Below are positions 13,690-44,340 of a DNA stretch of 64,000 bases, piece by piece. The position numbers were made by a program, and so were the translations under genes. Origin of the DNA: Bdellovibrionales bacterium (lineage in GTDB: Bacteria > Bdellovibrionota > Bdellovibrionia > Bdellovibrionales > UBA1609). Numbering within the stretch: position 1 is the stretch's first letter; every line of letters begins with the position of its first letter. Location: the NCBI GenBank assembly GCA_965200875.1, contig OZ241456.1, forward strand, positions 928,001 through 992,000, in the 5' to 3' direction. The notes beneath the pieces were generated by a model. It saw nothing but the letters and a program-made list of their open reading frames with translations. It was not told the DNA's origin and did not search any database.

Positions 13690-13718
13690 AAATTATACTC
13701 CCTTGACAGTCAGCAAGT

Positions 13719-25435: not shown

Positions 25436-25450
25436 AAATAATTTAATGAG

Positions 25451-26234: not shown

Positions 26235-28214
26235 ATGAAAGAAAATTTTTCAAACTCAAAACTTATTTCACTAAAATTATTATTAAAATTCAGAACTATC
26301 ACACCAAATTGTTCTGAATCAAAAGTTTATGTAATGGCCTGTGAAAAACCTCTAATTTTTTTTCTTTGTGCTATATATTTTTTACTGGTAGTTTTTATAT
26401 TATCTTCTTCAAAAGCTTTTGCTCATACTCATTCTCACGATCAAAGTCATCAAAGTATACCACCAGAACTTATCGAAAATATTTATGAAAAGGCTGTCAC
26501 TCTTTCTCCAGAAGTATTGGAGATTGCAAATGGTTCACTTACAGAACCTCATATACGAATTGGTAGACATAATATAGTGTTAAACTCCGGTTTTTGGGAA
26601 CTGGTAAAAGGATGGCTTAGGCTTTACCGTAAGGAAATTGAAGTATATTGTCCTTGTGATATTAGTGAAGAAGCATTGGTTAAAGATGCTAAGAATCATA
26701 TATCGTCTGGTTTTATTTATTCAAAAATAGGGAAACCTGTTGCTCACTTGTCTGAACACATCTTTGTAGGTTCTTATGGATTATCTGCAAAATATGGGAA
26801 AACAGCTTTACTGCTAAAAGCTTCAGCGGAAGTGGCGGAAACAATGCTTTCTGTATTTGTGGGAGGAAAAGGTATTCATATTCTCTGTAATGCGATTGAT
26901 GCCATGATTCTTTTTTTATTCAGAAAAACACAAATCTATGCTCGAGTTTTTCGCAATAGCCGATCAATGAACAAGAGTGGCTTATTAATGATGTTTCGCT
27001 TGGCTTGGTTCAATCGTTTAATGAAAAAAGCACAAAATAAAGTCTTTTTTCACTTGGAATCTGTGGAAATAAATCAAACAGCTCTTGCGAATGTTAATAA
27101 GGAAGGAGTTGGAAAAAATAAAAGAATGAAATGGGTAAACAGCATATCTCAAAAAGTGGCTTCTCTCCTAGAAGAAATTGCAGAGATAGACATGCTGTGG
27201 GAATCGGGACAGCTTTCAAAAAGACAACAGGAAAAATTACTGAAAAAAAGAAGAAAACTTTATCAGAAAATGGAACGAATTACAGCGGTATCCAGAAACT
27301 CTTTTTTGGGAAAAAGATATAAAAGATTTTTACTTCTCCTCTCCCGAAGAGGAAAAACAGACTATTTGAAAGGTTCCAGTGTGTCCGATAAAATTACACC
27401 TGAAAATTGGTTTTGGATGTTATCCGTTCAGGAAAATATTTTGGAAAGAGTCTTGATGAGAGAGGTTTCCAGAGAGATGGAAAACCTTGGTCAGGAATAT
27501 CGTACTGTTTTTAAAATCGATGAAGTCAGAACAGGCTTGGCAAGAGAGTTTGTTGAAAAAATGAATAGCACCAGCTTGCAAATAACTGAATCTCCAAACA
27601 ATTTGTCTACTGGAGAAAACAACAAATTTCAGGAAGATACCAACCAAAGTAGTACAAAAAAACAAGGCCATTACACCACTTCTGAACAAAAAAATATTCA
27701 ATCTGTAGAGAAAGTCTTAATGGATATAGAAAATATTTTTAATCCCTCTTTAACATTTAAGGAAAGGTACTTGCTGGTTTCCATCTTGGAATCAGGCCTG
27801 ACTGGTTTTTTTGAATATTATCTGCACATGATTTATAATCGTCTGTCTGAATCCACAGCGAATATGAATATATGGAGCAAAGCCAGATTGAAATGGAGAC
27901 TGGAAAGGTTTACTTATTACATATTTAGTTACGCTGATTTTTTGCGCACGATAGCTCTTATAAAACAGAAGCCTGCATTAATGGCTTATCAATATGAGGC
28001 AATGGAAAACTTTTTGTTGTTTTTTGAATATCTTCATAAACTGTCCAAAATTGCTGGTTCTCATAAACCCAAAGAAGAGCTTTTGGCCGTAATGGATAAA
28101 AATCTTCAATATATTCAATCTTTTCAGGTTCAAAAGGAAAAACGAACAGCTTTTTCATGGATGCCTTTCAAATCTCCTCTTCCTTATTGTCGCAATCTCA
28201 TAAGGAGTTTTTAA
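26235..28214 (+). CDS. Hypothetical exported protein
   Basis: 659 aa ORF; signal-like segment ending AFA followed by HTHSHDQSH. Start is probably internal. Confidence 0.6.
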   Translation: MKENFSNSKLISLKLLLKFRTITPNCSESKVYVMACEKPLIFFLCAIYFLLVVFILSSSKAFAHTHSHDQSHQSIPPELIENIYEKAVTLSPEVLEIANGSLTEPHIRIGRHNIVLNSGFWELVKGWLRLYRKEIEVYCPCDISEEALVKDAKNHISSGFIYSKIGKPVAHLSEHIFVGSYGLSAKYGKTALLLKASAEVAETMLSVFVGGKGIHILCNAIDAMILFLFRKTQIYARVFRNSRSMNKSGLLMMFRLAWFNRLMKKAQNKVFFHLESVEINQTALANVNKEGVGKNKRMKWVNSISQKVASLLEEIAEIDMLWESGQLSKRQQEKLLKKRRKLYQKMERITAVSRNSFLGKRYKRFLLLLSRRGKTDYLKGSSVSDKITPENWFWMLSVQENILERVLMREVSREMENLGQEYRTVFKIDEVRTGLAREFVEKMNSTSLQITESPNNLSTGENNKFQEDTNQSSTKKQGHYTTSEQKNIQSVEKVLMDIENIFNPSLTFKERYLLVSILESGLTGFFEYYLHMIYNRLSESTANMNIWSKARLKWRLERFTYYIFSYADFLRTIALIKQKPALMAYQYEAMENFLLFFEYLHKLSKIAGSHKPKEELLAVMDKNLQYIQSFQVQKEKRTAFSWMPFKSPLPYCRNLIRSF

Positions 28215-28840
28215 TGATGTGGGTTCAAAAAAAACAAAGAAAAAAAACAGTCTTACTTACTCTGACTTTTCTGTTGGTTCTTCTTGTATTTAATATTTCT
28301 GATTCCGGTGCAGGAATTATCTCTTTTTGTAGAACAGCTTTTTCTCGTAAAGATACTTTCCTAGCAGAGCATGATTTTAAAAACCCAACAGCAAAAACGC
28401 TTGTGGAGGGATATCAAATCATCAAGGGGTTAAAATGGTTTAAGCGGAAGCAAATAAAGGAATTTGAAAAAGGGTTAAAGGAAATGGTGGAGTTTTTGGA
28501 GCACCCTCATTCTGATACACGACAATTACAAGGTTTGAGTATTCCCTTGGAAGTTCTTGCAAGAAAATCTCATGAAATTATAAAATTTACAAAGCAATCT
28601 CCGCAAGCAGATGCTATTTATTTCCGACAGATCACACAGGCTGTGTTGGCACTGTTTGGCAAGCACTTTCCTTCAGTATTAAAAAATCATTCTTATCAAG
28701 TGGATTGGCCCAGGATTAATTTAATTGTAAAAAACATTGCTGACTTTGATATACACAATCCTCGCTTTTCACTTTATAAAATCAAAAGAGCCATAGAAGG
28801 ACGATACTCATTAAAGGAATTTATATTATGTCGTATGTAA
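28214..28840 (+). CDS. Hypothetical exported protein
   Basis: ORF listed from 28157; ATG at 28214 overlaps the upstream stop (TAATG) and is followed by a basic then hydrophobic signal segment. Confidence 0.6.
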   Translation: MMWVQKKQRKKTVLLTLTFLLVLLVFNISDSGAGIISFCRTAFSRKDTFLAEHDFKNPTAKTLVEGYQIIKGLKWFKRKQIKEFEKGLKEMVEFLEHPHSDTRQLQGLSIPLEVLARKSHEIIKFTKQSPQADAIYFRQITQAVLALFGKHFPSVLKNHSYQVDWPRINLIVKNIADFDIHNPRFSLYKIKRAIEGRYSLKEFILCRM

Positions 28841-28908
28841 GTAAACCAATGTCGTATGTAAAGTAAAAATTGTAACAAAGAAAAATATTTATCAAAGGAG
28901 TTTATATT

Positions 28909-30162
28909 ATGTCACACAAAGAAATAAAAAAACAGAATCCAATGCTAGGTTTTATGATTTTTATTTGTATTTTCTTTTTCATAGGTTGTGGGGAAACACA
29001 AGTCAATCTGGAAGAGACAGCAACAGCTGTTCCGGTTTTTGTTCCACAAATGGATCCAAAAGAAAAAGAGGAAATTGTCACTAACCCGTTGTTTGAAGCA
29101 GTTGTGGAAGGTAAAATAGCAGATATTGATAACATTGTTTCTAATGTGGGAGTATCTGTTCTGTCTGTAAACAAAAGAGGTGACACCCCTTTGGGCACAG
29201 CCATCCAGCTTAAGTTAAAAGAAAAAGCTTTGTTCCTGTTGGAAAAATTTCAGTGTCAGGACTTATCTTACCAGAATGAAAAAGGCGAAAGTTATATTTA
29301 TCTGGCCGCAAAGAGTGGTTACGAAGAGCTTATCCATCGCATAGCGGGAAAATGTTATGAAAATGATTTTTTTGACATTTCTGACTATGAATTTTCTGAC
29401 CTGGATCCAGAGACCACAACTGGAGAGATTGCTATTCATGTGGCTCTAAATGGTTCTGTCGCGAGTGCTTTGGATTATGAATACACAAAAGGTTCTATGG
29501 AATATTCTTGGTGGGTTTTTCATAAAGTCAATAATCAGGAGGAAAGTTTTTTACATACAGCCGTAAAAGAAGGCAGAACCAACACTGTGGATTGGGCTGT
29601 ACGCACTTACTGTCATGAGGGAGAATGGGAAAAATCAGATAGCGGATGGAAAAGCATCCCTGTCTCTGTATTTCAAAAATTTTGGAATGGATTACAGACT
29701 TTTACTTGGAACATGAATCAGCTGATAAATTACCGGGACATAAAAGGCAACACAGCTTTACACTTAGCCAGTAAAAACCTTGATGAGCAAAACATCCGGC
29801 TGTTATCAACTTGCCGATGGATGGATTTTTTGATAGAAAACAAAGAAGGCAATATTGCTTTGCAGGTTTTTTTACAGTCTCTTGATCCCCTGTTGAAAGA
29901 TCACAGTCAAAACATAAAAGACACTTTTATGTTTTTAACTCATAGAGAAACTTCTTTAAAAAAATGGTTCACAAATATATCCGGTACAGTGGATCATCAA
30001 AATAAAAAAGGCGATTCTGCATTTCATATATCAGCTCGCCTAGCAGATCCTTTTTTTTACAATTATCTTAAACAGTTTGCTGATTTATATTTAAAAAACA
30101 AATCTGATGAAACTCCAGCTACAATTTTTAATGTCACTCAAAGCAGGATTAATCATCTCTAA
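28909..30162 (+). CDS. Ankyrin-repeat lipoprotein
   Basis: Lipobox FFIGC; GDTPLGTAI, GESYIYLAAKSG, SFLHTAVKEG, GNTALHLAS and GDSAFHISA repeats; AAGGAG RBS upstream. Confidence 0.85.
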   Translation: MSHKEIKKQNPMLGFMIFICIFFFIGCGETQVNLEETATAVPVFVPQMDPKEKEEIVTNPLFEAVVEGKIADIDNIVSNVGVSVLSVNKRGDTPLGTAIQLKLKEKALFLLEKFQCQDLSYQNEKGESYIYLAAKSGYEELIHRIAGKCYENDFFDISDYEFSDLDPETTTGEIAIHVALNGSVASALDYEYTKGSMEYSWWVFHKVNNQEESFLHTAVKEGRTNTVDWAVRTYCHEGEWEKSDSGWKSIPVSVFQKFWNGLQTFTWNMNQLINYRDIKGNTALHLASKNLDEQNIRLLSTCRWMDFLIENKEGNIALQVFLQSLDPLLKDHSQNIKDTFMFLTHRETSLKKWFTNISGTVDHQNKKGDSAFHISARLADPFFYNYLKQFADLYLKNKSDETPATIFNVTQSRINHL

Positions 30163-30208
30163 AATGAAGTGACTTGGTTCTTTAGTAACCAAGGCAGAAA
30201 GAGCGGAA

Positions 30209-30844
30209 ATGATAAATCAAAGAAAGATGAGAATATTTTTTATTTTTTTGTTGTTTTGTGGCTGTTCCCCTGTAGTCCAAAATCAAGCCATACCGGTTAT
30301 TTTAGACAAAGATACAATATCCCTGACTGAGGATAAAAAAATATTACAGGGATCGGGAAGAGTGTTGTTTAACCAACCTCTGTTTGATTTATTTTCAAAA
30401 GAACTCTATTTCATTAAAGCAGAGATGTTTAATGAAAGTTCCTCTTTTGTTTTACACAGTCACTTTACCGGTTTTACACAAGCGGACGGAATTAAAATTT
30501 TTTTCAGCAGGGATAAAAACAGTTTAACCATACAAATATCCACTCCAAACTATTCATTTCAACATTTGTACACAGATGAAAAATACTTTATTCAAAATCA
30601 AACCTTACAAATATATACAGAGGCATATAATAGATCAAAAAATCTCATTGGCATTAAAGTGTGGAGAACTGATATAAACCCCACTGGGTATCTGAAACAA
30701 TCCATCTCTTTTCTCTCTAGACAAAATCTGCTCGCTGATTCCCAGGAATTGATTTTTTATTCCAGAGGACAGGGCATGTTATGGGGTGTGGAATTAAATA
30801 AAGTGCGTTTGATTAAAATTTTTCGGGAGTCTTTAAATCAATGA
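30209..30844 (+). CDS. Hypothetical lipoprotein
   Basis: MRIFFIFLLFCGC lipobox; beta-rich composition. Confidence 0.6.
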   Translation: MINQRKMRIFFIFLLFCGCSPVVQNQAIPVILDKDTISLTEDKKILQGSGRVLFNQPLFDLFSKELYFIKAEMFNESSSFVLHSHFTGFTQADGIKIFFSRDKNSLTIQISTPNYSFQHLYTDEKYFIQNQTLQIYTEAYNRSKNLIGIKVWRTDINPTGYLKQSISFLSRQNLLADSQELIFYSRGQGMLWGVELNKVRLIKIFRESLNQ

Positions 30845-31938
30845 TATACTTGGTTGCTTTCAGCTCAATAATCACAATATTGTGCTCTCTCTCTTTGATA
30901 ATACATTTCCCTGTGTGGTCAGTTCAAAATCCACTTAGGTTAAAATCTGGTTTAGTTGTAACTTTCGTTTTTATATTTGTCCAATTTCAGGTTGTTGCTA
31001 AACAGGAAAAAGAAAAACATTTATTTTCCATTCAATTAAGTGGTGAGGTGAGGCTCTCTCAAAATCAAATATCCAAAACCCAAACAGGTCTTTATCCTTA
31101 TATACCTTATACAGAACTGGAGTTTCATTATTCAAAAAATGAAAACTTGGATCTTTTAATAAATTTTGAAGTGGAGTCTCAAAATGAAGATTGGTCTATA
31201 AGTGTGGATGAGTTTAGTTTTTCGTACAGTTTTAAAGATATTCCTGTTAATGTAAAAGCAGGTTGGCTTCCTGTTCCATTAGGTTACATGGATGTAAATA
31301 CCAATGTGTTTTCCAGAGATCTGTCTTTTTATGATAGCATTTCCCATAGCCGTGAAGATATTGGCATAACGGTTGGTATAAATCTTTTACAGTCTGCTTT
31401 GAGTTTTCAAGTGGATCGCCTTGGAGGCTGGAGTTACAGGGAGTGGGATAACTCTTATAATCAGCCTGAATCTGCTCCTGTTGCAGTGAGTTTGAAAAGC
31501 CAGGGATCTTTTTGGGATTTTTTTATCAGCTGGTTTGAAGAGGACTTGGCTTTTTTTGATCCTGTTCAGGCTATAGGAGCGGGGGTGAATTTAAAAACTT
31601 CCCATAAAAAATTAGCAGTATCTATTCAATCCGAATTTTGGTGGATTACACAGGAGAGACAAACTGCCTTTGCCTATTATGTGTTTCCCAGTATTGCCAT
31701 TGATAAGATAAAAGTGGGGATGGTTTTTGAAAGTGTGAATTATTTTTCTCCTGATTTAAAAAAAGCTCAGGCAACCTCCTCTGTTTATGAAAGAATATTC
31801 CAAGTTTCCTATCAAATTCATCCTGACATAACTCTTATAGGAGAACGGTTTATCAGCACGCAGAAAAAAGGCCCTTTATTGAATGATTTGTGGTCAGCAC
31901 GGGTAAAAGTAAATTTTGGCTGGTCAAATTCCGACTAA
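30841..31938 (+). CDS. Putative outer-membrane beta-barrel/porin-like protein
   Basis: Many alternating aromatic strands, VKAGWLPVPLG motif and C-terminal ARVKVNFGW. Confidence 0.55.
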   Translation: MIYLVAFSSIITILCSLSLIIHFPVWSVQNPLRLKSGLVVTFVFIFVQFQVVAKQEKEKHLFSIQLSGEVRLSQNQISKTQTGLYPYIPYTELEFHYSKNENLDLLINFEVESQNEDWSISVDEFSFSYSFKDIPVNVKAGWLPVPLGYMDVNTNVFSRDLSFYDSISHSREDIGITVGINLLQSALSFQVDRLGGWSYREWDNSYNQPESAPVAVSLKSQGSFWDFFISWFEEDLAFFDPVQAIGAGVNLKTSHKKLAVSIQSEFWWITQERQTAFAYYVFPSIAIDKIKVGMVFESVNYFSPDLKKAQATSSVYERIFQVSYQIHPDITLIGERFISTQKKGPLLNDLWSARVKVNFGWSNSD

Positions 31939-32120
31939 GAAGGAATTTCTTTATGACTAAAGCCGTGGTTCTTTATCTAAGTCAAACGACCTCATAGATA
32001 TATTCAAATAAATATTTTAAACTTTTTAAATTAAATTACAGATTTTACTTGAATACAGCAGAGAATTTTTTTATCCAGAAAGTCCTCAGTCGCACTCCAT
32101 AAACGAAACATATAAAAAAG

Positions 32121-32951
32121 GTGAGTCAGCCAATGTTTGAATTTACTTACGACAAAAACAGGAGGCAGGTTTGTCCTTTGTCTGGAGGCAAAGACTCAAC
32201 AGCTATGGCTATTTTTTTGAAAAACAGAGTGCCTGATTTGGAATATGTTTTTTGTGATACAGGCAGTGAATTGCCAGAAACCTATCAATACTTAGACAAA
32301 TTGGAAGCTTTTTTAAGCCAAAAAATTATTCGGCTGAACAGTGAAAAAAACTTCGATTATTTATTAAAACAGCATTCGGATTATTTGCCTTCTCCGCGGG
32401 CCAGATGGTGCACAATGGAGATGAAAATCAAGTCTTTTGAAAGATATATCGGGGAGGATTTGATAGAAAGCTATATCGGAATCCGTGCGGATGAATTAAG
32501 GCAAGGTTATATTTCCAAAAAAGAGACTATTTTACCCCGTTATCCTTTTAAAGAAGAGGGAATTGATCTTGACGGGGTTAATCAAATTCTGGAAGAATCA
32601 GGTATTGGCCTTCCAAAATATTACGAGTGGCGGGTGCGTTCTGGCTGTTACTTTTGCTTTTTTCAGAGAAAAATTGAATGGGTGGGTTTGTTGGAAAAAC
32701 ACCCTGAGTTATTTAAAAAAGCCAAGTGGTACGAGCAACAAAACTACAAAGGGGATGGTGTTCCGTTTACATGGGTGGATGGTATGCCTTTGGAAGAGGT
32801 GGAAAAAAACAAAGAAAAAATTAAAGCTGACTATCAAAAAAGAATGGAAAAAGCAAAATTGAGTCAAAAAGGCAAACACATTACAGATGTTTTTAAAGAT
32901 GTCGTAAACGAAGACGATCAAGAAGATGCCTGCTTAATCTGCGATTTATAA
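32121..32951 (+). CDS. PAPS-reductase-family protein, SspD/DndC-like
   Basis: PP-loop SGGKDS, FCDTGSELPETY, RWCT..MKI, GIRADE, RSGCYFCFFQ and C-terminal ACLIC Cys pair. Confidence 0.85.
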   Translation: MSQPMFEFTYDKNRRQVCPLSGGKDSTAMAIFLKNRVPDLEYVFCDTGSELPETYQYLDKLEAFLSQKIIRLNSEKNFDYLLKQHSDYLPSPRARWCTMEMKIKSFERYIGEDLIESYIGIRADELRQGYISKKETILPRYPFKEEGIDLDGVNQILEESGIGLPKYYEWRVRSGCYFCFFQRKIEWVGLLEKHPELFKKAKWYEQQNYKGDGVPFTWVDGMPLEEVEKNKEKIKADYQKRMEKAKLSQKGKHITDVFKDVVNEDDQEDACLICDL

Positions 32952-32970
32952 AATAAAAGGAAATAGGAAA

Positions 32971-33852
32971 ATGCAACTACAGTTTTTTGAAAAACCACTT
33001 AAAAAAAAGATTGTTAATGTTGCGACAGTGCCTCATCGCAGTCCTTTCAGGTATCCAGGGGGTAAAACATGGTTTGTTCCTTTTTTCAGACAATGGATGA
33101 AAAGCAAAAAACAACAACCAGCCTTACTAATAGAACCTTTTACAGGAGGGGGTATAATAGGGCTTACAGCCGCTTTTGAAGATTTGGCTGATCACATTCT
33201 CTTAGTGGAAAAAGACGAAAATGTGGCTTCTGTTTGGAAAGTCTTGCTTGAAAAAAACTATCAAAAATTAATAAATGAAATTTTAAATTTTGAATTGACA
33301 CTTGAGAATGTAACAAAAACTCTAAAACTAAAACCCAAGTCCCTTTATCAACAGGCATTACAAACAATTATCCGAAACAGAGTCAGTTATGGTGGTATTA
33401 TGGCTCATGGTTCTGGTTTAACAAAAAATGGAGAAAATGGCAGAGGGCTTTCTTCCAGATGGTATCCGGCCACTTTATCTAAAAGAATGAAAGATATTGC
33501 TTATATAAAAAGAAAGATCTGTTTTGTTCAAGGGTGTGGGTTGGAGATCATTCAAAAGCACAAGAATACAAAAGAGAATTGTTTTTTTGTTGATCCTCCT
33601 TATACAGCTTTTGGAAAACAAGCAGGGAAGAGGTTATACAAGTATCATAATATTGACCATGAGTATCTTTTTAAACTTTTTCGCAACAGTCCTGCTGATT
33701 TTTTATTTACTTATGATATAAATAAAGAGATTTTAAAATTGGCAAAACATTTTAACTTTCAAACGGCTGTAGTCCCAATGAAAAACACTCATAATAAAAA
33801 AATGAAAGAATTAATTATAGGAAAAAATTTATCATGGCTATCAAGCAAATAA
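32971..33852 (+). CDS. Dam/D12-class N6-adenine DNA methyltransferase
   Basis: SPFRYPGGKT, IEPFTGGG (SAM binding) and FVDPPY (catalytic). Confidence 0.92.
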   Translation: MQLQFFEKPLKKKIVNVATVPHRSPFRYPGGKTWFVPFFRQWMKSKKQQPALLIEPFTGGGIIGLTAAFEDLADHILLVEKDENVASVWKVLLEKNYQKLINEILNFELTLENVTKTLKLKPKSLYQQALQTIIRNRVSYGGIMAHGSGLTKNGENGRGLSSRWYPATLSKRMKDIAYIKRKICFVQGCGLEIIQKHKNTKENCFFVDPPYTAFGKQAGKRLYKYHNIDHEYLFKLFRNSPADFLFTYDINKEILKLAKHFNFQTAVVPMKNTHNKKMKELIIGKNLSWLSSK

Positions 33853-35754
33853 ATGGGGTTTATAATGTCTGAATCAAAATTAAAAGTACAGGTTTTAGAA
33901 GGAGCTGACAATAAACTGGATCTTGCAAAACTGGAAGATGTTTTAAAGAGAAAGCTTATAATCCCTTCTTACCAAAGGCCATACGCATGGGAATCAGAAG
34001 ATATAGGGGAGATTTTTCAAACAATTTCAAACTCACAGGAAAACTATGAAGATATATGTTTTTTTGGATCAATAATTTTATCTAAAAAAAGTAATGGTAA
34101 TGGTTTTGGTCAAGAAAAGTATTATATTATTGATGGACAGCAAAGGCTTTCTTCATTTCTACTTATTTTAAGAATTTTTTTAAATCAGTTAGATGAGCTT
34201 TTAAAAAAATTACAAGATTCTATAGAAAATGGAACAGAACAGCAAATAGAGAAAAAACTGAAACTAAAAAACAAAAGAAGCAAACTATTAAACATAATTC
34301 AAACTGTAGACTTAGACAGAGAAAGCTCTGTCATTGAAAATGAAAAATCAATACTTAATTTTATAAAAAATGGAAGAGATTCTGATAAACTTCCAAAACA
34401 TCTAAGTAAAAAAATAGCCATAATATATAATCTCTCTCCAATTCGTCATGAAAATGATTTATTTGACTCAAATTATATAGAATATATTGATGAACTTTTA
34501 AAGTTTTTGGATATTATTTTAAATAAAGTTAAATTTTGTTTGATTTGTATTACAGGAAAACACTCAGAAGATTTTGCTATTAACCTGTTTAATACATTAA
34601 ACACAACAGGGCAACCTCTTACTGCCTTTGAAGTTTTGAAATCAGAGTTGCATACGATTGAGCAAGATTTATCAAAAAAAATTAATGATATACAATCAAA
34701 AATTATAAAACAATATATATTTCAAAGGAAAAAAATTATTACTCATACTGGGAAATTATTGCTTTATTTGCCACTTTATAGAGGAGATTTTACAGAAAAC
34801 GGTTATACTTTGTCTGATAAAAAATTTAAAGATCAAAGAGGATATTTAAAAGAAGTTTTAAAAAACAAAGATGTTGAGTCAGCGCAATCCATAGTTAATG
34901 ATATAGAAATCATTGATGATTTTTATTCAAAATATTGGTTAAAACCAGATTCATTTCCACAATTATTTCAAGAACATGATGAACAGATTTGTTTTCAATT
35001 TTTATCAGAGTTGAAACATGATCGTGTCTTACCAATATTAATTCGCTTTTATAAAGAAAATCAAAAATTATTGGGAAAATGTGTAAAAACCTGCACAGCT
35101 TTTTCTGTTTTATGGAGAGCCTTTTGTGACGGAGGGACTTCCGGCATTGATAAAGCCTATAAAGAAATTTCTTTAAAACTAAAAAATTATGAAATACAAG
35201 AGTTAAATACACAATTAAAAATTTTATTTTTCAATAAAATTGAATCACAAAATATTCAAAAAATAAAAAGCAGTTGGACACAAAAACTTAAAACCAGTAC
35301 TATTTATAAAAATCAAAAGTTGTCAAAACTTTTACTTTTTTTAGCTTACAATCAAAGAGATTTTGATCCTGCTCAGAAATTATTAAGATCAGGTAAAGGA
35401 ATTAATATTTTAACTCTTTATCACTGGAAAGATCAAGATTATAAAACCATAGAGCATATCATTCCAAAATCTGACAGATCAATTATAGGTCACACACACA
35501 CTTTAGGCAATCTTACTCTTCTTCCCCAAGTATTAAATTCTTCTTTAGGAAATAAACCCTTTTCAGATAAACTCAAACAGTATAAAATTTTTACTCAAAC
35601 AGAGAATAAAGATAAATATCCTTATCTCCCTATTATCGCACATATTGCCCACTATAATCAATTTGAAAAGAAAGAAATAGAAAGTCGCTCTGAAGTACTT
35701 GCTGAATTTATTTGGAAAACATTGGCTGAAGATTGGTTGGGCTGGGAAAAATGA
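33853..35754 (+). CDS. DUF262 + DUF1524/HNH protein (SspE/GmrSD-like modification-sensing nuclease)
   Basis: IPSYQRPYAW, IIDGQQRL and FNTLNTTGQPL (DUF262); TIEHIIP...LGNLTLL...NSSLGNK (HNH). Confidence 0.88.
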   Translation: MGFIMSESKLKVQVLEGADNKLDLAKLEDVLKRKLIIPSYQRPYAWESEDIGEIFQTISNSQENYEDICFFGSIILSKKSNGNGFGQEKYYIIDGQQRLSSFLLILRIFLNQLDELLKKLQDSIENGTEQQIEKKLKLKNKRSKLLNIIQTVDLDRESSVIENEKSILNFIKNGRDSDKLPKHLSKKIAIIYNLSPIRHENDLFDSNYIEYIDELLKFLDIILNKVKFCLICITGKHSEDFAINLFNTLNTTGQPLTAFEVLKSELHTIEQDLSKKINDIQSKIIKQYIFQRKKIITHTGKLLLYLPLYRGDFTENGYTLSDKKFKDQRGYLKEVLKNKDVESAQSIVNDIEIIDDFYSKYWLKPDSFPQLFQEHDEQICFQFLSELKHDRVLPILIRFYKENQKLLGKCVKTCTAFSVLWRAFCDGGTSGIDKAYKEISLKLKNYEIQELNTQLKILFFNKIESQNIQKIKSSWTQKLKTSTIYKNQKLSKLLLFLAYNQRDFDPAQKLLRSGKGINILTLYHWKDQDYKTIEHIIPKSDRSIIGHTHTLGNLTLLPQVLNSSLGNKPFSDKLKQYKIFTQTENKDKYPYLPIIAHIAHYNQFEKKEIESRSEVLAEFIWKTLAEDWLGWEK

Positions 35755-35832
35755 TTTGTTTAAATTGATATGGTGTGATTGGAAGAAATATCAACTATAA
35801 CAAAAAAGGAGATGGAGATGGAAAGGACGACA

Positions 35833-36006
35833 AGTGTAAAAACTTTCGATTATTTATTAAAACAGTATTCGGATTATTTACCTTCTCCGTGGGCCAGGTT
35901 GTGTACAATGGAGATGAAAATCAAGTCTTTTGAAAGATATAAAAGATGTTGTAAATGATGACGATCAGGAAGATGCCTGCTTAATCTGTGATTTATAAAA
36001 TAAAAG
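35833..36006 (+). pseudogene. Internally deleted second copy of the PAPS-reductase gene
   Basis: 35833-35940 matches 32340-32447 and 35941-36006 matches about 32895-32959 (3' end, stop and downstream spacer), with scattered substitutions. Confidence 0.85.
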
Positions 36007-36019
36007 AAAGGAAAAGACA

Positions 36020-38119
36020 ATGGAATCTAAAGAAAAAATAATAAAGACAATAATAGATGATATAAGTAGTGGTAATTTGTTACTGCCTCATTTTCAAAGA
36101 GACTTTGATTGGAAACCAGATAAGCAAAAAGATTTAATAGCTTCTTTTTTATATAATATCCCTATTGGCAGTATATTGCTTTTACAAACAAATACTGCAA
36201 CAGATATGACTACAAAAAAGATTGGATATAAAGAACCTGAGAACCAAAAAAACAGCAATCAGCCACCAAAGTCTTATTTGATGGATGGTCAACAGAGATT
36301 AACCACTTTAAAAAGTGTGTTTGATGACTTCTTTAAAGAATCTGAAGACAATGAAATATTTAATAAGCTATATCACAACTTGAAGTACAGATGGTTTTTA
36401 AAATTAAATATTTTTAGCCAAGGTGATATGATTGAAGAGTCACATTTAAGAATTATTTTAGATCTTATCTATAAGAGGGAAATATCTGATGATAGAAGTG
36501 TTTCAGATGTAAAAGACTTGATCAGTCAACTACAAATTCATAAATCTAGACCAGAAAAACCTTATCATCCTGAAGCTTTACGGAAAAATAAATCGGATTT
36601 TAGAAATTTTCTGGAGAAAAATCAATTTCTAGGTTTATTTTTACTTTTACCTACAACAAAGACAGGTTCTTTATCTCGAGAATATACAGATCTTCTGAAA
36701 GATCCAACACAAAAAATATTTGAAGAAGAGTGGTTAAAGAAACTTCAAGGTGATACTAAAATACAATTTATAAAAATTTTAAAAGAATATGAAAAAGAAG
36801 AATTAGATTTCAATAACTCAGATCAAATAAAACGCATATCTAGACAGTGGGCAGACGACTTATATGACGCTTTAAGACATTTATTCACTGAAAGTAGAAA
36901 ACTTTTTACTGTAAGTTATGGAGACAGTTTTTCCAAAGCGGTTGAAGCCTTTACAGCTATGAATAAAGGAGGACTACCTTTAAGCACATTTGATATTATC
37001 GTAGCTAAATATTCAGCTTTACAGGATAGCAAACCATTGAAAGAACGTATAATAGAAAAATTTAAAGAATTTTGTAAAGAACATACAGAGTTATTACCAA
37101 AAATTGAATGTGAGAAAATATTTAATCATTTTCCAAAGGATCAAAGCTCTGAAACACAAAAGTTTTATAACCAATATCTAAATATGCTAAGCATTCTTTC
37201 TTCTAAAAATAATAATGAATCAAATAATTTACAATCAGATCACATTAAAGAAAAAAAGAAACTATCTTTAACAAAGAAGGAGATTAATGAATATACTGAT
37301 GAGTCAATTCATGCCATTGCTTTGGCTTTTAGGTTTTTATCTGGATATTGTGGGGTGTCAAGAATAACTGATATTTCTTATCAATTAATGATTCTTCCAA
37401 TAGCAAAAAGTTTATATGATAAAACCTCCTCTCAGTCTCTAATATCTAAAAATATTTACAAAATATTGCATTGGTATTGGAGTGCGATTTTTAGTGGGCG
37501 GTATAGAGAAAAACAAAATAGCCGAGCAATAGAAGATATAAAAAATCTAAAAAAAATTTTAGATAATGAGTCATCAAATGTAAGTAGTAAAAAAGTTTTT
37601 TCCGATACAGGCTATAGTGATTTAGAATCACTAAAAAATAATGATACCCCTGCACTAAAGAATCCGATTATGCAATTTATTTTCATAAATAAAATTCTGA
37701 ATGAGAATTGTAAAAACCCAGAAGATGTTATTTCTAAATTGGAAAAAGGAGATTTTGAGATATCTCATTTAATTTCATTGGATGATTATAATAAAAAAAC
37801 AACCCAACAAATCAAAAGAAATTCTCCTCACTATATTAATTCTGTGCTTAATTTGTCTTTATTGTCAAAAGACATAAACCGTTTTGATCGTAGTAAAAGC
37901 TGGTATGAATGGAATCAAGATAAATTAAAAAAAGAAAATATTTTAATACCAGAAAAAATTAATAGACAGAATTGGGATGAATTTAGCAAGTCTGCTAAAA
38001 ATGCTGATTATGATCAATGGGAGAAGTTATGTGAAAGTTTTTTAGAATGTAGATTTAAAGAAATAAAAAAAACAGTAGAAAACAGATTAGAAGCTCTTAA
38101 ACAAAGCTGGAAAAAATGA
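36020..38119 (+). CDS. Second DUF262-domain (GmrSD-like) protein with degenerate HNH-like C-terminus
   Basis: LPHFQRDFDW, PIGSILLL, MDGQQRLTTL, FTAMNKGGLPL; C-terminal EISHLISL...NSVLNLSLLSKDINR. Confidence 0.85.
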   Translation: MESKEKIIKTIIDDISSGNLLLPHFQRDFDWKPDKQKDLIASFLYNIPIGSILLLQTNTATDMTTKKIGYKEPENQKNSNQPPKSYLMDGQQRLTTLKSVFDDFFKESEDNEIFNKLYHNLKYRWFLKLNIFSQGDMIEESHLRIILDLIYKREISDDRSVSDVKDLISQLQIHKSRPEKPYHPEALRKNKSDFRNFLEKNQFLGLFLLLPTTKTGSLSREYTDLLKDPTQKIFEEEWLKKLQGDTKIQFIKILKEYEKEELDFNNSDQIKRISRQWADDLYDALRHLFTESRKLFTVSYGDSFSKAVEAFTAMNKGGLPLSTFDIIVAKYSALQDSKPLKERIIEKFKEFCKEHTELLPKIECEKIFNHFPKDQSSETQKFYNQYLNMLSILSSKNNNESNNLQSDHIKEKKKLSLTKKEINEYTDESIHAIALAFRFLSGYCGVSRITDISYQLMILPIAKSLYDKTSSQSLISKNIYKILHWYWSAIFSGRYREKQNSRAIEDIKNLKKILDNESSNVSSKKVFSDTGYSDLESLKNNDTPALKNPIMQFIFINKILNENCKNPEDVISKLEKGDFEISHLISLDDYNKKTTQQIKRNSPHYINSVLNLSLLSKDINRFDRSKSWYEWNQDKLKKENILIPEKINRQNWDEFSKSAKNADYDQWEKLCESFLECRFKEIKKTVENRLEALKQSWKK

Positions 38120-38141
38120 TTTGTTTAAATTGATATGGTGT

Positions 38142-38260
38142 GACTGATGGAACAATATGTTGTTGATTTGGATTTCCGCTTTCGCGAGAATGATAATCCT
38201 TTGGGGATAGAGTGATAAGAGGCGAATATTTGAAACACAAAGATTTTTCAGGGATAACTA
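38142..38260 (+). mobile_element. Degenerate copy of the MITE-like element
   Basis: TATGTTGTTGATTTGGATTTCCGCTTTCGCGAGAATGA core and TTGAAACACAAAGATTTTTCAGGGATAACTA right end parallel the 49215 and 50632 copies. Confidence 0.55.
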
Positions 38261-38290
38261 AAATATATAAACTATAACAAAAAAAAGGAG

Positions 38291-38725
38291 GTGGAGATGG
38301 AAGGGGTGGCTGTTACTAGGATTAAAGATCAGAATTTTCAAATACTAAGTTGTTACCAGATTGCAGACTATAAAGAAGATGATAAAGTGTTTTTTAACAA
38401 ACAGCATTTAAAGGAACTACTAATGCCTCTTAAGGAAATAGAAGGAGGTCGCATTGTTATTAAAAAAGTGGAAGAGCAGGCAAAAGATTTTTTGTTAAAA
38501 AATTTAGAGAAAGCGCGCAAGATTGTGCTATGGCACTTTAAAAGTCAGCGAGAAACAGCATACAGTATAGCTTTTCACAAAGTGAAGGGTGTAATATTTG
38601 CCTTTCTTTTGACTCCTATCACCACCGCTGAATTAAAAGAAATAGAAAGCCGGGCGGAAGGAGTAAGCTATTTAACAGGAGATAAAGCTGACCTATCTAA
38701 GACCAAAAAAGATTTTATTCAGTAA
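38291..38725 (+). CDS. Hypothetical protein
   Basis: 144 aa ORF with AAGGAGG RBS; no recognised motif. Confidence 0.6.
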   Translation: MEMEGVAVTRIKDQNFQILSCYQIADYKEDDKVFFNKQHLKELLMPLKEIEGGRIVIKKVEEQAKDFLLKNLEKARKIVLWHFKSQRETAYSIAFHKVKGVIFAFLLTPITTAELKEIESRAEGVSYLTGDKADLSKTKKDFIQ

Positions 38726-38730
38726 TGGTA

Positions 38731-38809
38731 AGATTCCCGTTTTTAAGGGACTGAAAGCTCTTAGAGAGCTTTCAGTTTAGTAAAGGAAAACTTTTTTCAT
38801 GGGTAATTA
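38731..38809 (+). repeat. Partial MITE-like element with 12-bp-stem hairpin (possible terminator)
   Basis: GATTCCCGTTTTTAAGGGA, hairpin ACTGAAAGCTCT-TAG-AGAGCTTTCAGT (38750-38776) and TTTTTCATGGGTAATTA right end. Confidence 0.65.
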
Positions 38810-38829
38810 TACAGGTGTAGGCTAAAGAT

Positions 38830-40113
38830 ATGATTTATTTTGATTATAATTCCACAGCACCTTATTCCCCCTCAGTGAGGAACTACCTAAAAGAGGATTT
38901 GTTACGGAATTGGCAAAATCCATCAGCTATTTACCCACCGGCGAGGATCATGGACCAGCAAATAAGAGAGTGTAGAAAAGTTATCGCAGACTTTTTAAAT
39001 TGCTCGTCTAAGAATTTGTTTTTCACCAGTGGAGGAACAGAAGCAATTAATACTGTGCTCTCCACAGACACTTTAAAGCTTAATGGTTTAAATTCTGTTA
39101 TCAGCTCACCGCTGGAACACCATGCAACACTAAAAAAACTTGAATATCTAAGAGCTTTTTGCTCTGTTCATCAGGATTCCCACTTTCAAGTGGGTAATAA
39201 TGAACAAGGGGAAATCAACTTAAATGATCTGGAGGAGCTTTGTACAAAGCAACCCTATTCCTTAGTGTCTCTTTTATCCTCTAACAACGAAACCGGGGTT
39301 ATTACAAATATAAAAGAAGTAAGCAGGATTGCTAAAAAACATAATTGCCTAGTTCATGTGGATGCAGTTCAGTCTCTGGGAAAAACCCTTGTGGATTTAA
39401 CAGACTGGGGGGTGGACTTTGCCAGCTTCTCTGGTCATAAAATTGGTGCTATGAAGGGAGTTGGTTTTCTTTATGCCAGAAAACCTTTTGCACCTCTAAT
39501 GTATGGTGGTGGACAAGAAAGAAACTTAAGGGCTGGCACATATAACTTTCCGGCTATTTATTCTTTAAAACTTGCCCTACAGGATGTTGATTTTCAAAAA
39601 TGGGAGGGTGTAGGACAATTAAGAGATTACTTTGAAAAGTCTTTGCTAAGTGAATGTAGCTACACAAAACAAGGTGAGATTCCCGCTTTCAAGGGAAAAG
39701 AAGACAACGGTTTGTCTTCCTGTTTGGCATCAGCTGGATTAACAGATACGACTCCAGAAATGAAAAGTATTGTGGGAATGTCAAGTGCAAGTGGTGCAGA
39801 AATGACAAAAAAATACAAAATAAATTGCCAAAGAGCAAAACGTCTGCCCAATACTTCCAGTATTTATTGTATGGGTATGAGCAACCAAGTTGTTTTATTG
39901 CACTTGAACCAAAAAGGAATATGCGCTTCTGCGGGTTCTGCTTGTAATGTTGGTTCTCCTGAGCCTTCTCATGTTGTTACTGCCTTGAGAATATGTGAAG
40001 ATTTGAATCCCAGAGATTATGCTCGTTCCTGCTTTCGGATTTCTCTTTCACCAAATAATACAAAGCACGAAGTGGATATTTTAATAAGTGCTTTAAAAGA
40101 GCTACATTCTTAA
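38830..40113 (+). CDS. Cysteine desulfurase (IscS/NifS/DndA/SspA family)
   Basis: IYFDYNST, FTSGGTEA, NNETG, HVDAVQ, SGHK (PLP Lys), RAGTYN and SAGSAC (catalytic Cys); carries an ~55 aa insertion. Confidence 0.93.
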   Translation: MIYFDYNSTAPYSPSVRNYLKEDLLRNWQNPSAIYPPARIMDQQIRECRKVIADFLNCSSKNLFFTSGGTEAINTVLSTDTLKLNGLNSVISSPLEHHATLKKLEYLRAFCSVHQDSHFQVGNNEQGEINLNDLEELCTKQPYSLVSLLSSNNETGVITNIKEVSRIAKKHNCLVHVDAVQSLGKTLVDLTDWGVDFASFSGHKIGAMKGVGFLYARKPFAPLMYGGGQERNLRAGTYNFPAIYSLKLALQDVDFQKWEGVGQLRDYFEKSLLSECSYTKQGEIPAFKGKEDNGLSSCLASAGLTDTTPEMKSIVGMSSASGAEMTKKYKINCQRAKRLPNTSSIYCMGMSNQVVLLHLNQKGICASAGSACNVGSPEPSHVVTALRICEDLNPRDYARSCFRISLSPNNTKHEVDILISALKELHS

Positions 40114-40292
40114 ATGCGCAAAAGCCTAAAAAGCAAGGGAAATAACATATTTTTTCACGGGCGAATAAATAAAGTGTGAAAAGATTACAAAATATATATT
40201 TGTAATTGAAAAATTTTGAGAAAAATGGTTATATAATTTTTATTGAGTCCCAAAATTTAGGGGTCAAGAATAAATTGTATAAAAGAGGGTAT

Positions 40293-40850
40293 ATGAAAGC
40301 AATAATTTTACTAGTTATTTCCATGTTGGTTTTTGGTTGTTCAGAGAGTACCAAATTAGATAGTCAATCTTGTTTGACTCCTTCTGGTTCTTTTGGATGT
40401 AATATCACATTGCATGATGTGTATGGTATTGGTATTTACGAAGCGAGAGAGATAGAAAAACTGTTGAGTGATAATCTTGGTCTAGATATACCAGAAGTGG
40501 ATATACCAGAAGTGCCAGATATACCAGATGTGGATATACCAGAAGTGCCAGATATACCAGAAGTGGGAAATGGGAGATTGGACATTCACCGGTCATTAAC
40601 AGAAGAACCAGTTACTCTAAGAAATTGTGATCAAATGAAGATAGTGTTTGATCGTTGTGTTAAAAATGGGAGTAAATCATATTCTTGTAGTACACTTCGC
40701 CATGCTAGAACATGGGGCCTTATAAAAGTTCAATGCAGAAAGGATATAGTTCTTGATAAATGGAATCAATGTAATCCAAAAATTGAAAATCGCCAAACAA
40801 GCCAAGAGGTTCTTACAAGCATTTTTGTAGATCAATGTGTCCGAATCTAG
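40293..40850 (+). CDS. Hypothetical lipoprotein with DIPEV repeats and Cys-rich C-terminus
   Basis: MKAIILLVISMLVFGC lipobox from ATG 40293; DIPEV/DIPDV repeats at about 40485-40565. Confidence 0.7.
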   Translation: MKAIILLVISMLVFGCSESTKLDSQSCLTPSGSFGCNITLHDVYGIGIYEAREIEKLLSDNLGLDIPEVDIPEVPDIPDVDIPEVPDIPEVGNGRLDIHRSLTEEPVTLRNCDQMKIVFDRCVKNGSKSYSCSTLRHARTWGLIKVQCRKDIVLDKWNQCNPKIENRQTSQEVLTSIFVDQCVRI

Positions 40851-40882
40851 TAAATTCTTAGAAAGGACACTGACAAGATCAA

Positions 40883-42220
40883 TTATTTAAACGCGAATAC
40901 ACATCTTATGTGTTTTTCAACTTTTTCCAATGTTTCTGGATCTGATATGTATGCTCTTGTACTTTTCAGTGCTGTCTCTATTGCATAATGACCCAGTATA
41001 GATGCAACAACTTTCTGTTCAGGGCTAAGAGGTTTTGTTTGGTTTGTTCTTTCTGAGTCATTTTGCGGTCTTCTTGATTCACGAGAGTCTTCTATTGTTA
41101 GATCTTTGAGGAAATTTTCGTAATCCTGAAGAGTTGGTTGTCTTCTTGATTCACGAGAGTCTTCCATGCTCTCTTGGTTTGCCAAATGTGGGATAACTGA
41201 AACTCTATCTTGAAAATTCCTTAAGGCATCCTCCTGTATTTCAGGACGAAATGAAACTTTTCGCATTTCCGTTTCAAGTTCTGATAGCTCTCTTTTGTTT
41301 TGAATAAAGGAAAGGGTTTTATCCATTATTCTTATTTTGTCCGCTTCTGAGAAATACTCCCAGCCTATTTGCAGGAAAATCTTGGCATCCTGAATAGATT
41401 CAATATGAGGAAGGGCGTAAGAAACTATTATGGATAATTCTCTTTTGGAAAATTGTTTTTGTCCTACGAAGAGCAGGTCTACTGCATCAATAAAGTTCTC
41501 AATACTGTAAATCAGCTCCACTTGTTGTTGTCTGGTAAGCAGATTGAAAAACGCTGCTTTTCCACCTCTTTTATATTCAAGAGTGGCGTATTTGAAGTTT
41601 GCTATTAGTTCCTGATTTGCAACAGGCTTGAATTGTATGCCTTCTGGCTTTTTAAGACACCACCAAGTATCTGAGACTATTCGCCCGAGTGTTGCTGAAT
41701 CCTTGATGGCAACTCGAAGTTTTAGCTTGTAAGCTTCTTCTAAGCTAATGCCTTTTTCCTGTAATCGTGCTTTAATTCTTTCATCATTTAAATCAATAAA
41801 CGGGTAGCCTGCTGACACCACCACTTTTATTATACTGTCACCATAATGAGAAGAAGAATTTCTATTTTCTGCAACATAAAGTCCTTTACCAGTTCTACCA
41901 GCAATAGCTGGTTTTGAGTACATTTCAGTTCCTACATAATGTTCATAAAGTTCTTGAGTCATCTCACCAGCTGAAAGGAGTTTTTGTGCCACTTCTTTGG
42001 GTTGCCATCTGTAAAATACCCGTTCCTCAGTGGAAGGTGTTGCTAGGGACTCTATAAAATCCCTCTTTTCTTCAGGGGATAATTCATTGGCAAAACAAAG
42101 GTCATTAAAAAAGAAAAGGGACAAGAGCAAGGCTATAAGTGTCATTAGTTTCTGATTTAATGAAAATAGAATTTTTAAAAAATAGAAATGTAAAAGTATA
42201 TTCATAATAGATCCTTCCAT
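40883..42220 (-). CDS. Exported protein with putative ADP-ribosyltransferase-like N-terminal domain
   Basis: Signal-like segment, then VFYRW...GKGLYVA...SSHYG...IIKVVV pattern; the ART call is tentative. Confidence 0.5.
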   Translation of the reverse strand: MEGSIMNILLHFYFLKILFSLNQKLMTLIALLLSLFFFNDLCFANELSPEEKRDFIESLATPSTEERVFYRWQPKEVAQKLLSAGEMTQELYEHYVGTEMYSKPAIAGRTGKGLYVAENRNSSSHYGDSIIKVVVSAGYPFIDLNDERIKARLQEKGISLEEAYKLKLRVAIKDSATLGRIVSDTWWCLKKPEGIQFKPVANQELIANFKYATLEYKRGGKAAFFNLLTRQQQVELIYSIENFIDAVDLLFVGQKQFSKRELSIIVSYALPHIESIQDAKIFLQIGWEYFSEADKIRIMDKTLSFIQNKRELSELETEMRKVSFRPEIQEDALRNFQDRVSVIPHLANQESMEDSRESRRQPTLQDYENFLKDLTIEDSRESRRPQNDSERTNQTKPLSPEQKVVASILGHYAIETALKSTRAYISDPETLEKVEKHIRCVFAFK

Positions 42221-43323: not shown

Positions 43324-44340
43324 TCAAGTGGTGTTAATTTTTTCGAAGTTGTTCTTTTTGTTTTTCTTCGGCTTATTACCCTGCAACAACAGTACAATTA
43401 ATCCGATCATTTTATCTTTATCCTTTGGATCGCTTTCAGCAACCAACAAAGTTAAAGCTGTTAAAGCAGGTGGGGTTAGATTGCGAGGCAAACCTAAAGC
43501 TTTTTGCAAAAACCACAAAAAAGCGAAAGCCCCGCTTCTCTTATTTCCATCAGAAAAAGGATGATTTTTAACCATAAAATAGAGCAAATGGGCTGATTTT
43601 TCCTCAACAGTAGGATATAAATCCTGTCCGCCAAAGGACTGAAATACATTACCTACAATTCCCTCCACAGCGTTTTTTGATCTTTCTTGTCCAAATAAAT
43701 CAGTAGCTTGTTTTTTAGCGATAAGTTTCTGCTTGAATTTTTGTAAAGTATTGCTTAAATCTTCAGCTGTAAAAAGTACTTGTTTTTTTGTCACTCCATT
43801 TTTTGGAAACTTTTCAGAATCGTAAGCTTCCAAGGAAAGCCATGTGTCAGCAAATACACTAATAAGATCTACGGCAGACTGTGCGGGAATGGACTTATCT
43901 GCTGGCAAAAGATGTTTTATATCCTCCAGAGTTTTTTGGAATTGTTGATAATTTTTAGCCAACTGTTTTTTATTTATGGTGTAGCCTTTTAAAAGATGTT
44001 GTTTTAAGGTCTTTGTAGCCCATATACGAAATTGTGTGGCTTGGTTTGAATTGACACGATAACCGACAGACAGTATAGCATCCAAATTGTAATATTCAAT
44101 TTTCCTGTTTACTTGTCTCTTTCCTTCTTTTTGAACTGTTTCCAAAATGGAAACAGTTAATTTTTTGTTTAATTCTCCATTTTGATAGATATTATGTAAA
44201 TGTTTTGATATAGCTGGTTTTTTTACACCAAAAAGCTTTGCAATCTGGTTCAGATTTCCCCACACAGTGTTTTTTTGAAAGTCACCGCGAAACTCGATTT
44301 TTCCGGTTTTGGACTGATAGATAAACACTTCTTTTTTCAT
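43324..44340 (-). CDS. RhuM/Fic-Doc family protein
   Basis: ISKHLHNIY..GEL, YYNLDAILSVGYRVNS..ATQFRIWAT (RhuM) and HPFSDGNKRSG (Fic/Doc). Confidence 0.92.
   Translation of the reverse strand: MKKEVFIYQSKTGKIEFRGDFQKNTVWGNLNQIAKLFGVKKPAISKHLHNIYQNGELNKKLTVSILETVQKEGKRQVNRKIEYYNLDAILSVGYRVNSNQATQFRIWATKTLKQHLLKGYTINKKQLAKNYQQFQKTLEDIKHLLPADKSIPAQSAVDLISVFADTWLSLEAYDSEKFPKNGVTKKQVLFTAEDLSNTLQKFKQKLIAKKQATDLFGQERSKNAVEGIVGNVFQSFGGQDLYPTVEEKSAHLLYFMVKNHPFSDGNKRSGAFAFLWFLQKALGLPRNLTPPALTALTLLVAESDPKDKDKMIGLIVLLLQGNKPKKNKKNNFEKINTT

Follow-up and report, generated by a model that had tools for sequence, protein, structure and literature searches.

Genes and Motifs of the Locus

The stretch of DNA analyzed here (the window; 64,000 nucleotides, positions 928,001 to 992,000 of contig OZ241456.1) comes from a Bdellovibrionales bacterium and carries a six-gene locus related to the Ssp systems of phosphorothioate (PT) DNA modification and defence. 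The genome to which it belongs (G000) amounts to 1.87 Mb in two contigs, of which C1 is that of the window, is 94.5% complete and was assembled by an unknown method. The six open reading frames (ORFs), all on the + strand, corresponded to sspD (32121-32951), a Dam-type methylase gene (32971-33852), sspE (33853-35754), the gene of a second DUF262 protein named here duf262b (36020-38119), a small ORF (38291-38725), and sspA (38830-40113). SspD carries SGGKDS at residue 21 and CYFC/CLIC; the methylase has FTGGG and DPPY; the two DUF262 proteins share DGQQR, to which the first adds EHIIP; and the desulfurase has SGHK and SAC. Both the coordinates of these co-directional genes and all the motifs quoted in the original prediction, which was made from the letters of the window, agreed with our own check. 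The stop codon of the methylase gene (33850-33852) touches the ATG at 33853, as the prediction had pointed out; this is, however, merely the mechanical start of the ORF, and ATG 33865 is the likelier start of sspE because a contig without the methylase, described below, rejoins the window at 33864.

The product of sspD, a PAPS-reductase-family ATP pyrophosphatase, matched the PADLOC model SspD (PDLC02782; 9e-107, profile 1-276 of 277) and PF01507. The score of the SspD model on this protein was 355 bits vs. 30 bits for BrxP (4.6e-8) and 17.5 bits for DndC (3.9e-4). Its start codon ATG 32133 is retained and is likely the true start, as judged from a MAFFT alignment (A3) and from local alignments to relatives. 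The first DUF262 protein combines a DUF262 domain (DGQQR nucleoside triphosphatase, NTPase) with a DUF1524/HNH nickase domain, the composition of the PT-sensing effector SspE, and it matched the PADLOC SspE model (PDLC02792; 1e-71), GmrSD_N (PF03235), GmrSD_C (PF07510) and the solved SspE structures 6JIV/7DRS (E 8e-31).

The class-V cysteine desulfurase encoded by sspA carries an insertion of ~45 residues relative to NifS/IscS profiles. It was matched by the PADLOC models SspA (PDLC02759; 8e-84) and DndA (3e-82) and by Aminotran_5 (1e-56), and the NifS model scored 276 bits on it, under its cut-off and with the match in two stretches. The original prediction had allowed for a housekeeping IscS. 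Besides it, G000 possesses a NifS-type (C1:686480-687652) and a SufS-type gene (C1:1314276-1315640). With two such genes elsewhere, and with its position closing the locus conserved in relatives, the window enzyme, the third of the genome, is a dedicated SspA.

The Missing Genes sspB and sspC

The prediction had described an Ssp-like system without sspB and sspC, with none of the Ssp partners in view. This held for the ORFs of the window, but the genome-wide profile searches that it had proposed (PADLOC and Pfam DUF4007) found both genes intact on the same chromosome, so that a system without them is refuted. DUF4007 (PF13182) gave one full-length match in G000 (C1:826009-826869; 3.3e-70, 236 bits); it spans profile positions 1-288 of 288 without a stop codon and falls within an ORF that encodes the nickase SspB (C1:825931-826887; PADLOC SspB 1e-65). 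The sspC gene (C1:828043-831705) encodes 1220 amino acids (aa) and matched PDLC02779 (2e-129) over profile positions 3-1048 of 1054. Internal stops were found neither in the six window ORFs nor in sspB or sspC. The end of sspC (C1:831705) and the start of sspD (C1:960121) are separated by 128,415 bp. With regard to other sulfur-dependent systems, PglZ (PF08665) had no match in G000, and the best DndD score (TIGR03185) was 19.8 bits vs. a cut-off of 245.85, DndB and DndE not having been searched for.

All these data taken together indicate that the locus is, with high probability, the distal half (sspD to sspA) of a canonical SspABCD-SspE system whose proximal half was cut off by a chromosomal rearrangement, with two effector genes stacked between sspD and sspA and the methylase as a passenger. 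The system itself is thus known; what is unusual is its state, divided into two parts and with a stacked slot. The contiguity of sspB, sspC and sspD is absent in G000 only at the level of organization, the gene content being complete.

A pentapeptide-repeat gene precedes sspB (C1:825290-825874) and another precedes sspC (C1:827144-827785; 9290-9874 and 11144-11785 of the fetched locus L004), and the gap between sspB and sspC is at most ~330 bp in the seven relatives with close homologues. Upstream of sspB lies a defence island (C1:816093-824749; L004 93-8749), at the end of which sspB and sspC are located; it contains a type I S-subunit fragment, a second D12 methylase, a fused AriAB (5e-174), a GIY-YIG ORF, a HEC-01 pair and PDC-S01.

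Ssp Loci of Relatives and Their Variable Slot

Relatives were defined by SspD matches (E<=1e-30) in 201 sampled genomes of the order, and 17-20 kb were fetched around the gene in each of the eight relatives obtained. SspD occurred in nine of the 201 genomes, G000 included, and in four of the seven other congeners. The window SspD was 82-94% identical to those of seven relatives and 61% identical to that of G038. In the eight relatives sspB, sspC and sspD were always contiguous, sspC and sspD overlapping by 8 bp in four of them according to mechanical ORF calls, and sspA closed the locus in six (identity to the window SspA at the same position of 55-61% in five relatives and 36% in G038).

The content of the slot between sspD and sspA was different in every relative. 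The slot of G176 held a small ORF and an SspE (64% identical to that of the window), that of G182 a small ORF, a 33-codon relic of the sspD 3' end and an SspE (72%), and that of G186 an SspE-like gene (36%) followed by a small ORF (76%). A homologue of duf262b (53%) stood alone in the slot of G184, and more distant SspE-like proteins (25-34%) were encoded in those of G152, G109, G113, and G038. The methylase was present in none of the eight slots.

Two other features were seen around these loci. The sspA (666 aa) and sspC (1411 aa) products of G186 (5493-7493 and 10876-15111 of locus L105) were far longer than those of the other relatives, and alignment gaps suggest insertions in both. At 43324-44340 (- strand) the window encodes a RhuM + Fic/DOC protein (PADLOC PDC-S23, 5e-113), a 63% homologue of which follows the SspE-like gene in G113.

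Proposed Cassette Scars Within the Slot

A degraded second copy of sspD, overlooked in the original prediction, was found at 35833-36015 (+ strand), between sspE and duf262b. Its first part (35833-35941) is 92% identical to 32340-32448 of the intact gene and is directly followed by 35942-36015, 88% identical to 32895-32971; the relic thus retains an internal piece and the 3' end with its spacer, having lost ~446 bp between them and the 5' 219 bp, and it still matches SspD profile positions 55-99 (E 2.6e-9). A tail sequence is duplicated as well, with one copy after sspE (35741-35826) and the other after duf262b (38106-38305); segments 35741-35781 and 38106-38146 are 95% identical, and 35788-35826 and 38265-38305 are 88% identical. 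The resulting layout reads sspD-[methylase-sspE]-tail-sspD'-[duf262b]-tail. In G184 the intact 3' end of sspD leads straight into the duf262b homologue, and sspD relics are also present in G182. These repeats suggest that two alternative sspD-effector-tail cassettes were fused in tandem by recombination between shared flanks and that the redundant sspD subsequently decayed, steps that we infer from the repeats.

The small ORF encodes 144 aa (likely start 38297) and appears restricted to the lineage. Its homologues in the slots of G176 and G182 shared 37 and 40% identity, respectively. Database searches returned five relatives only, with no Pfam, PADLOC or NCBIfam family and no usable Atlas match, and Foldseek found nothing in the PDB at E<=0.001. 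The AlphaFold model reached a mean predicted local distance difference test score of 77.5, and its top fold match was PAS-like (Z 7.1), tied with antitoxin and ParE rows and inside the noise range of the tool.

The Second DUF262 Protein

The duf262b protein shares with SspE the DUF262 domain. In Pfam it matched GmrSD_N only (PF03235; 1e-24), without a match to PF07510, and its four PADLOC matches at E<=1e-3, among them PDC-M55C and HEC-05, comprised no SspE model. A profile of its family (31 sequences) matched BrxU (7P9K; 7.5e-17) as the sole solved structure, leaving the solved SspE unmatched, and the hhalign match between the family and an alignment of eight SspE sequences was confined to 80 N-terminal columns. 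The C-terminal region contains a conserved H/N/N block resembling a His-Me finger, whose residues H583, N611 and N620 are invariant among the 31 sequences; four of the listed relatives have a precomputed DUF1524 (PF07510) match. The C-terminal end is thus likely a His-Me-type nuclease.

The genomic company of the family was examined in a sample of 401 genomes of the phylum (threshold E<=1e-40) and in 80 metagenome loci. Family matches were obtained in three of the 401 genomes (G000, G399, and G306), always adjoining ssp genes. Five of the 80 metagenome loci presented sspB and sspC beside the duf262b relative, most of the 80 sharing the DUF262 core only. In two of the contigs (L109 and L115) the order was BrxP-like PAPS reductase-SspB-SspC-SspA-DUF262b-Pbe genes, an ORF scan placing the duf262b relative directly after sspA. 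An SspE-type gene was found by tblastn in none of seven loci (G399, G306 and the five metagenome contigs). Within L109 (155-13733) and L115 (1622-13537), the PAPS reductase, although BrxP-like, is unfused and located before sspB, and PbeA and PbeC occur in the former and PbeC in the latter.

Two readings of these results were considered. According to the first, duf262b would be a stand-alone type IV enzyme of the BrxU/GmrSD type that happened to enter a defence hot spot, unconnected with PT. In agreement with this, BrxU is the only solved relative of the family and the resemblance to SspE ends with the N-terminal columns mentioned above; duf262b has in common with type IV enzymes of this kind the N-terminal NTPase-like DUF262 domain, and it has a conserved C-terminal H...N...N block. 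The match to BrxU is mainly over the first ~100 residues, however, and, in contrast to stand-alone enzymes, the family adjoined ssp genes in every phylum genome where it was located, occupies the slot alone in G184, accompanies sspB and sspC in five metagenome contigs (directly after sspA in L109 and L115), and does so in seven loci without a detectable SspE-type gene. We therefore regard a stand-alone enzyme as rather unlikely. Because of this company, namely the sole slot gene of G184 and the ssp neighbours elsewhere, the favoured candidate function for duf262b is that of a PT-coupled effector belonging to a family outside the current SspE models.

A wider proposal is put forward tentatively, as a possibility that falls somewhat short of being probable: the family would consist of undescribed PT-coupled effectors, kin to SspE through the DUF262 core only and closest to BrxU, that replace SspE or are stacked with it, and the slot would be a site of cassette exchange where incoming effectors carry a piece of sspD as recombination anchor. 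Replacement refers here to G184, G399, G306 and the metagenome loci with a BrxP-like PAPS reductase.

G000 encodes a third protein of the DUF262/DUF1524 type (C1:1347462-1349213; 4462-6213 of locus L188), 22% identical to SspE. Its gene is flanked on one side by recG and on the other by an ORF that weakly matches a type III restriction endonuclease (2e-9, far under the cut-off).

The Break Between sspC and sspD

Local alignments to four relatives stopped at C1:831522 on the sspC side (831512 against G186) and resumed at C1:960132-960142, i.e., window positions 32132-32142, on the sspD side. Since the similarity ends and resumes at these positions, the break falls within the last ~60 bp of sspC. 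Past the break, the sspC of G000 reads through ~60 unrelated codons. In the window the corresponding junction occupies 31939-32132, upstream of sspD, and similarity to the sspC-sspD operons of relatives begins only at the sspD start codon.

The pil genes were affected in a matching way. Directly after sspC lie pilP/pilO/pilN (L004 17165-19601, - strand), and pilQ is found 8 kb before sspD (window 22264-24441, - strand). In four of the five congeners checked pilP and pilQ were adjacent (in G184 pilP was not found with this query), and in G000 they are ~116 kb apart. Given that pilP adjoins sspC, that pilQ is near sspD, and that pilP and pilQ are neighbours in congeners, the ssp and pil operons were both broken and then rejoined to each other. 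A single inversion failed to yield the observed gene order. No repeat or mobile element common to both junctions was found; all that emerged were multi-copy elements of short length and a paralogue of a 349-aa ORF. In G000 the counterparts of the sequences that flank ssp in congeners are dispersed, and a conserved insertion site is therefore lacking.

Logan contigs from run X1, of the same sample, covered part of the region independently. A contig of 7340 bp spanned 24940-32279 with 0 differences, running from unrelated upstream genes into sspD, and a second one, also with 0 differences, spanned 32657-35776. Their ends, 32279 and 35776, lie shortly before the first and the second copy of a 109-bp repeat, respectively, so that the tandem order over these copies is taken from the window assembly.

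Several other features surround the junctions. Short multi-copy intergenic elements occur at window 38729-38801 and 40132-40172 and at C1:833028-833139, with matches of ~30-110 bp at many sites of the genome; they are situated beside the small ORF, sspA and the junction on the sspC side, and they look like repetitive extragenic palindromes or miniature inverted-repeat transposable elements (REP/MITE-like). Between pilQ and the ssp half-locus, the window contains (24791-26101, + strand) an ORF with weak PD-(D/E)xK/CARF-nuclease-like matches and then an EcsC-family ORF (PDC-S29, 2e-61). Five co-directional ORFs of 659, 227, 417 (ankyrin-repeat), 211, and 365 aa precede sspD (26235-31938, + strand); apart from the ankyrin repeats they had no family match, and no homologues were found in the ssp loci of relatives. 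Runs X3 and X4, which carry a sponge metagenome label and belong to a study other than that of X1, provided short contigs with few differences over the flanking genes (24199-32960 and 38292-41000). One X3 contig of 757 bp fits 32425-32960 and then continues with sequence unlike the methylase. X3 and X4 cover nothing within 33072-36473, so they are uninformative on presence or absence there. A scan of 31500-40400 was likewise uninformative, with 39 promoter-like vs. 36.6 expected and four terminator-like vs. 4.5 expected signals.

The Methylase Gene

The gene between sspD and sspE encodes a solitary D12-class (Dam-type) N6-adenine methyltransferase (PF02086) that also matched PD-Lambda-5_B (3e-38) and MTase_II in PADLOC. 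It belongs to a large family, with 3931 proteins at E<=0.001, a good number of them >50% identical across phyla. The best 80 family loci from species-representative genomes were inspected, a count that leaves outside the closest relatives P0002-P0015 (62-89% identity). In none of these 80 loci did sspD, sspE or duf262b occur within 10 kb of the methylase gene. By contrast, 72 of them shared one homologous neighbour of ~290 aa, and all four members tested were NotI-family restriction endonucleases (PF12183); in several of the eight loci without this neighbour the methylase is at a contig end. The genome that provides the closest match within the order (G011) also holds a methylase and NotI-type pair, the restriction enzyme being found there by six partner queries. 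In G000, tblastn with 72 partner proteins (E<=1e-3) found no NotI-type partner in a genome 94.5% complete, and PF12183 had no match either, though its controls gave none. The methylases of the NotI-family pairs are 48-55% identical to that of the window, which differs in that no partner restriction enzyme was found for it in G000 and in sitting inside the ssp operon.

In a minor X1 contig of depth 6.8, position 32951 is linked to 33864 by 14 different letters, which places sspD directly before sspE. The NotI-type pairing in the family, the failure to find the partner in G000 and this methylase-less contig all argue that the gene is a solitary type II methylase inserted at the strain level, most likely a passenger and what remains of a NotI-type type II pair. 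The enzyme retains its motifs and the residues at all 63 columns that are invariant in an alignment of 32 family sequences, so it probably continues to methylate its own site without any dependence on PT. We saw no evidence of a part in PT marking.

Assessment of the Split System

Several observations weigh against a functional Ssp system divided by rearrangement. The last ~60 residues of SspC are unlike those of relatives and the 8-bp overlap between sspC and sspD is gone, changes that could impair stoichiometry; sspB and sspC are themselves separated here by a pentapeptide-repeat gene; and the rearrangement needs at least two steps. In addition, the Logan contigs leave gaps at 32280-32656 and 35777-35911, the sites of the 109-bp repeat copies, and a methylase-bearing slot may recur in near kin (P0002-P0015).

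The original prediction had offered a split or decaying Ssp system as one of its explanations. The split was borne out, whereas decay is not favoured. In a decaying system the rearrangement would have inactivated PT synthesis, the leftovers would be heading for loss, and the effectors would be idle or acting alone. The operon broken at sspC/sspD with a replaced SspC C-terminus, the relic of sspD and the foreign genes between sspB and sspC point in that direction. However, the modification and effector ORFs are all intact, free of internal stops and with every catalytic motif present, SspC matches its profile as far as position 1048 of 1054, the sspD start codon is retained, and separately encoded parts are known to work, with sspA/iscS elsewhere in the genome according to passages of PMC8092258. 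Decay is consequently improbable.

A hybrid had been proposed as the other explanation, in which N6-adenine methylation and PT would jointly mark self DNA for two DUF262 nucleases in a system devoid of SspB and SspC. The position of the methylase ORF within the operon, its stop touching the sspE ATG and its intact catalytic motifs are compatible with it. Nevertheless, sspB and sspC exist and are intact, and the order PAPS reductase-Dam-DUF262, the recurrence of which was a proposed check, appeared in none of the eight related Ssp loci and in none of the 80 methylase-family loci, where the preferred neighbours were NotI-type enzymes. Furthermore, the same sample contains the sspD-sspE contig without the methylase, published Ssp systems show no need of base methylation in the passages seen of PMC8092258 and PMC9646914, and methyltransferases beside PT genes may act independently (a passage of PMC12914056). 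The hybrid is not supported and must be considered very improbable.

It can scarcely be believed that the operon is truly contiguous and was split only by faulty assembly: the assembly consists of two contigs obtained by an unknown method and the Logan contigs end within sspD where they reach the repeat, but the independent contig without differences runs from unrelated genes into sspD, unique sequence flanks the break on either side, the pil operon shows a corresponding break, and sspC continues into ~60 unrelated codons.

Proposed Working and Comparison With Known Systems

PT modification by the split Ssp module is predicted from its genes. By analogy with the published system, SspA would mobilize sulfur from cysteine and SspD would activate it by ATP pyrophosphatase chemistry, while the nickase SspB and the ATPase SspC, supplied in trans from the upstream locus, would select and open the DNA sites, so that the host DNA would receive single-strand PT marks, which in systems of this type are placed at CCA-type motifs. 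SspE would read PT via its DUF262 GTPase domain and its HNH domain would nick unmarked invading DNA. Because two sspD-effector-tail cassettes are joined in tandem, one modification module probably serves two readers, SspE and the duf262b nuclease, which are unrelated beyond DUF262. The methylase would act apart, most likely methylating its own site in a PT-independent manner. Domain roles of SspE are treated in passages of PMC9646914, and domain views of SspB and SspC in passages of PMC10853773.

Among known systems, the closest are those of the SspABCD-SspE type, with examples in Vibrio cyclitrophicus FF75, E. coli 3234/A, and Streptomyces yokosukanensis (passages of PMC8092258 and PMC9646914). 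All five proteins are found here at full length, with the DGQQR DUF262 and HNH/DUF1524 domains in SspE; the locus differs in the 128 kb that separate sspB-sspC from sspD, in the replaced C-terminus of SspC, and in the methylase, relic sspD, second nuclease and small ORF located between sspD and sspA. The sspBCD genes are typically a three-gene operon in the passages seen of PMC8092258 and PMC12914056, with sspA adjacent or elsewhere. SspE and a second effector, SspFGH, may share one SspABCD module (a passage of PMC8092258), and likewise one module is apparently paired here with two restriction-type effectors in one locus, although the second one is a single DUF262-H/N/N protein of an uncharacterized family instead of the three-gene SspFGH. 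BREX type 4 (BrxP/BrxC/PglZ/BrxL) and Dnd (DndBCDE) have in common with this locus a PAPS-reductase-family enzyme and a cysteine desulfurase; they differ by the SspD, BrxP and DndC scores given above and by the lack here of a PglZ match and of a DndD score above cut-off. Acinetobacter Ssp systems are mostly without sspE, according to a passage of PMC12421847. In the main-text passages of the Ssp literature consulted, neither a split sspBC|sspD system nor a partner of a second DUF262 family was mentioned, which is not to claim their absence from print.

Biological Meaning

Known PT chemistry is unchanged by these findings. The adjacency of sspB, sspC and sspD serves as a detection rule in passages of PMC12914056, and rules of this kind would call neither half of the present system, so split PT systems may be under-counted. 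The locus also offers a natural test of an Ssp modification module expressed from two sites, and the relic sspD and the duplicated tails show the addition of effector cassettes at one fixed site. What deserves attention in the locus is the second nuclease family, together with the cassette scars, the methylase being the least interesting part. According to a passage of PMC8092258, 2,211 of 2,678 sspBCD modules have no known partner. The duf262b family travels with ssp genes and is thus a concrete candidate for the unidentified restriction partners of most sspBCD modules; if its coupling to PT is true, it would name one missing partner of the ~84% of modules described in that source as being without SspE or SspFGH.

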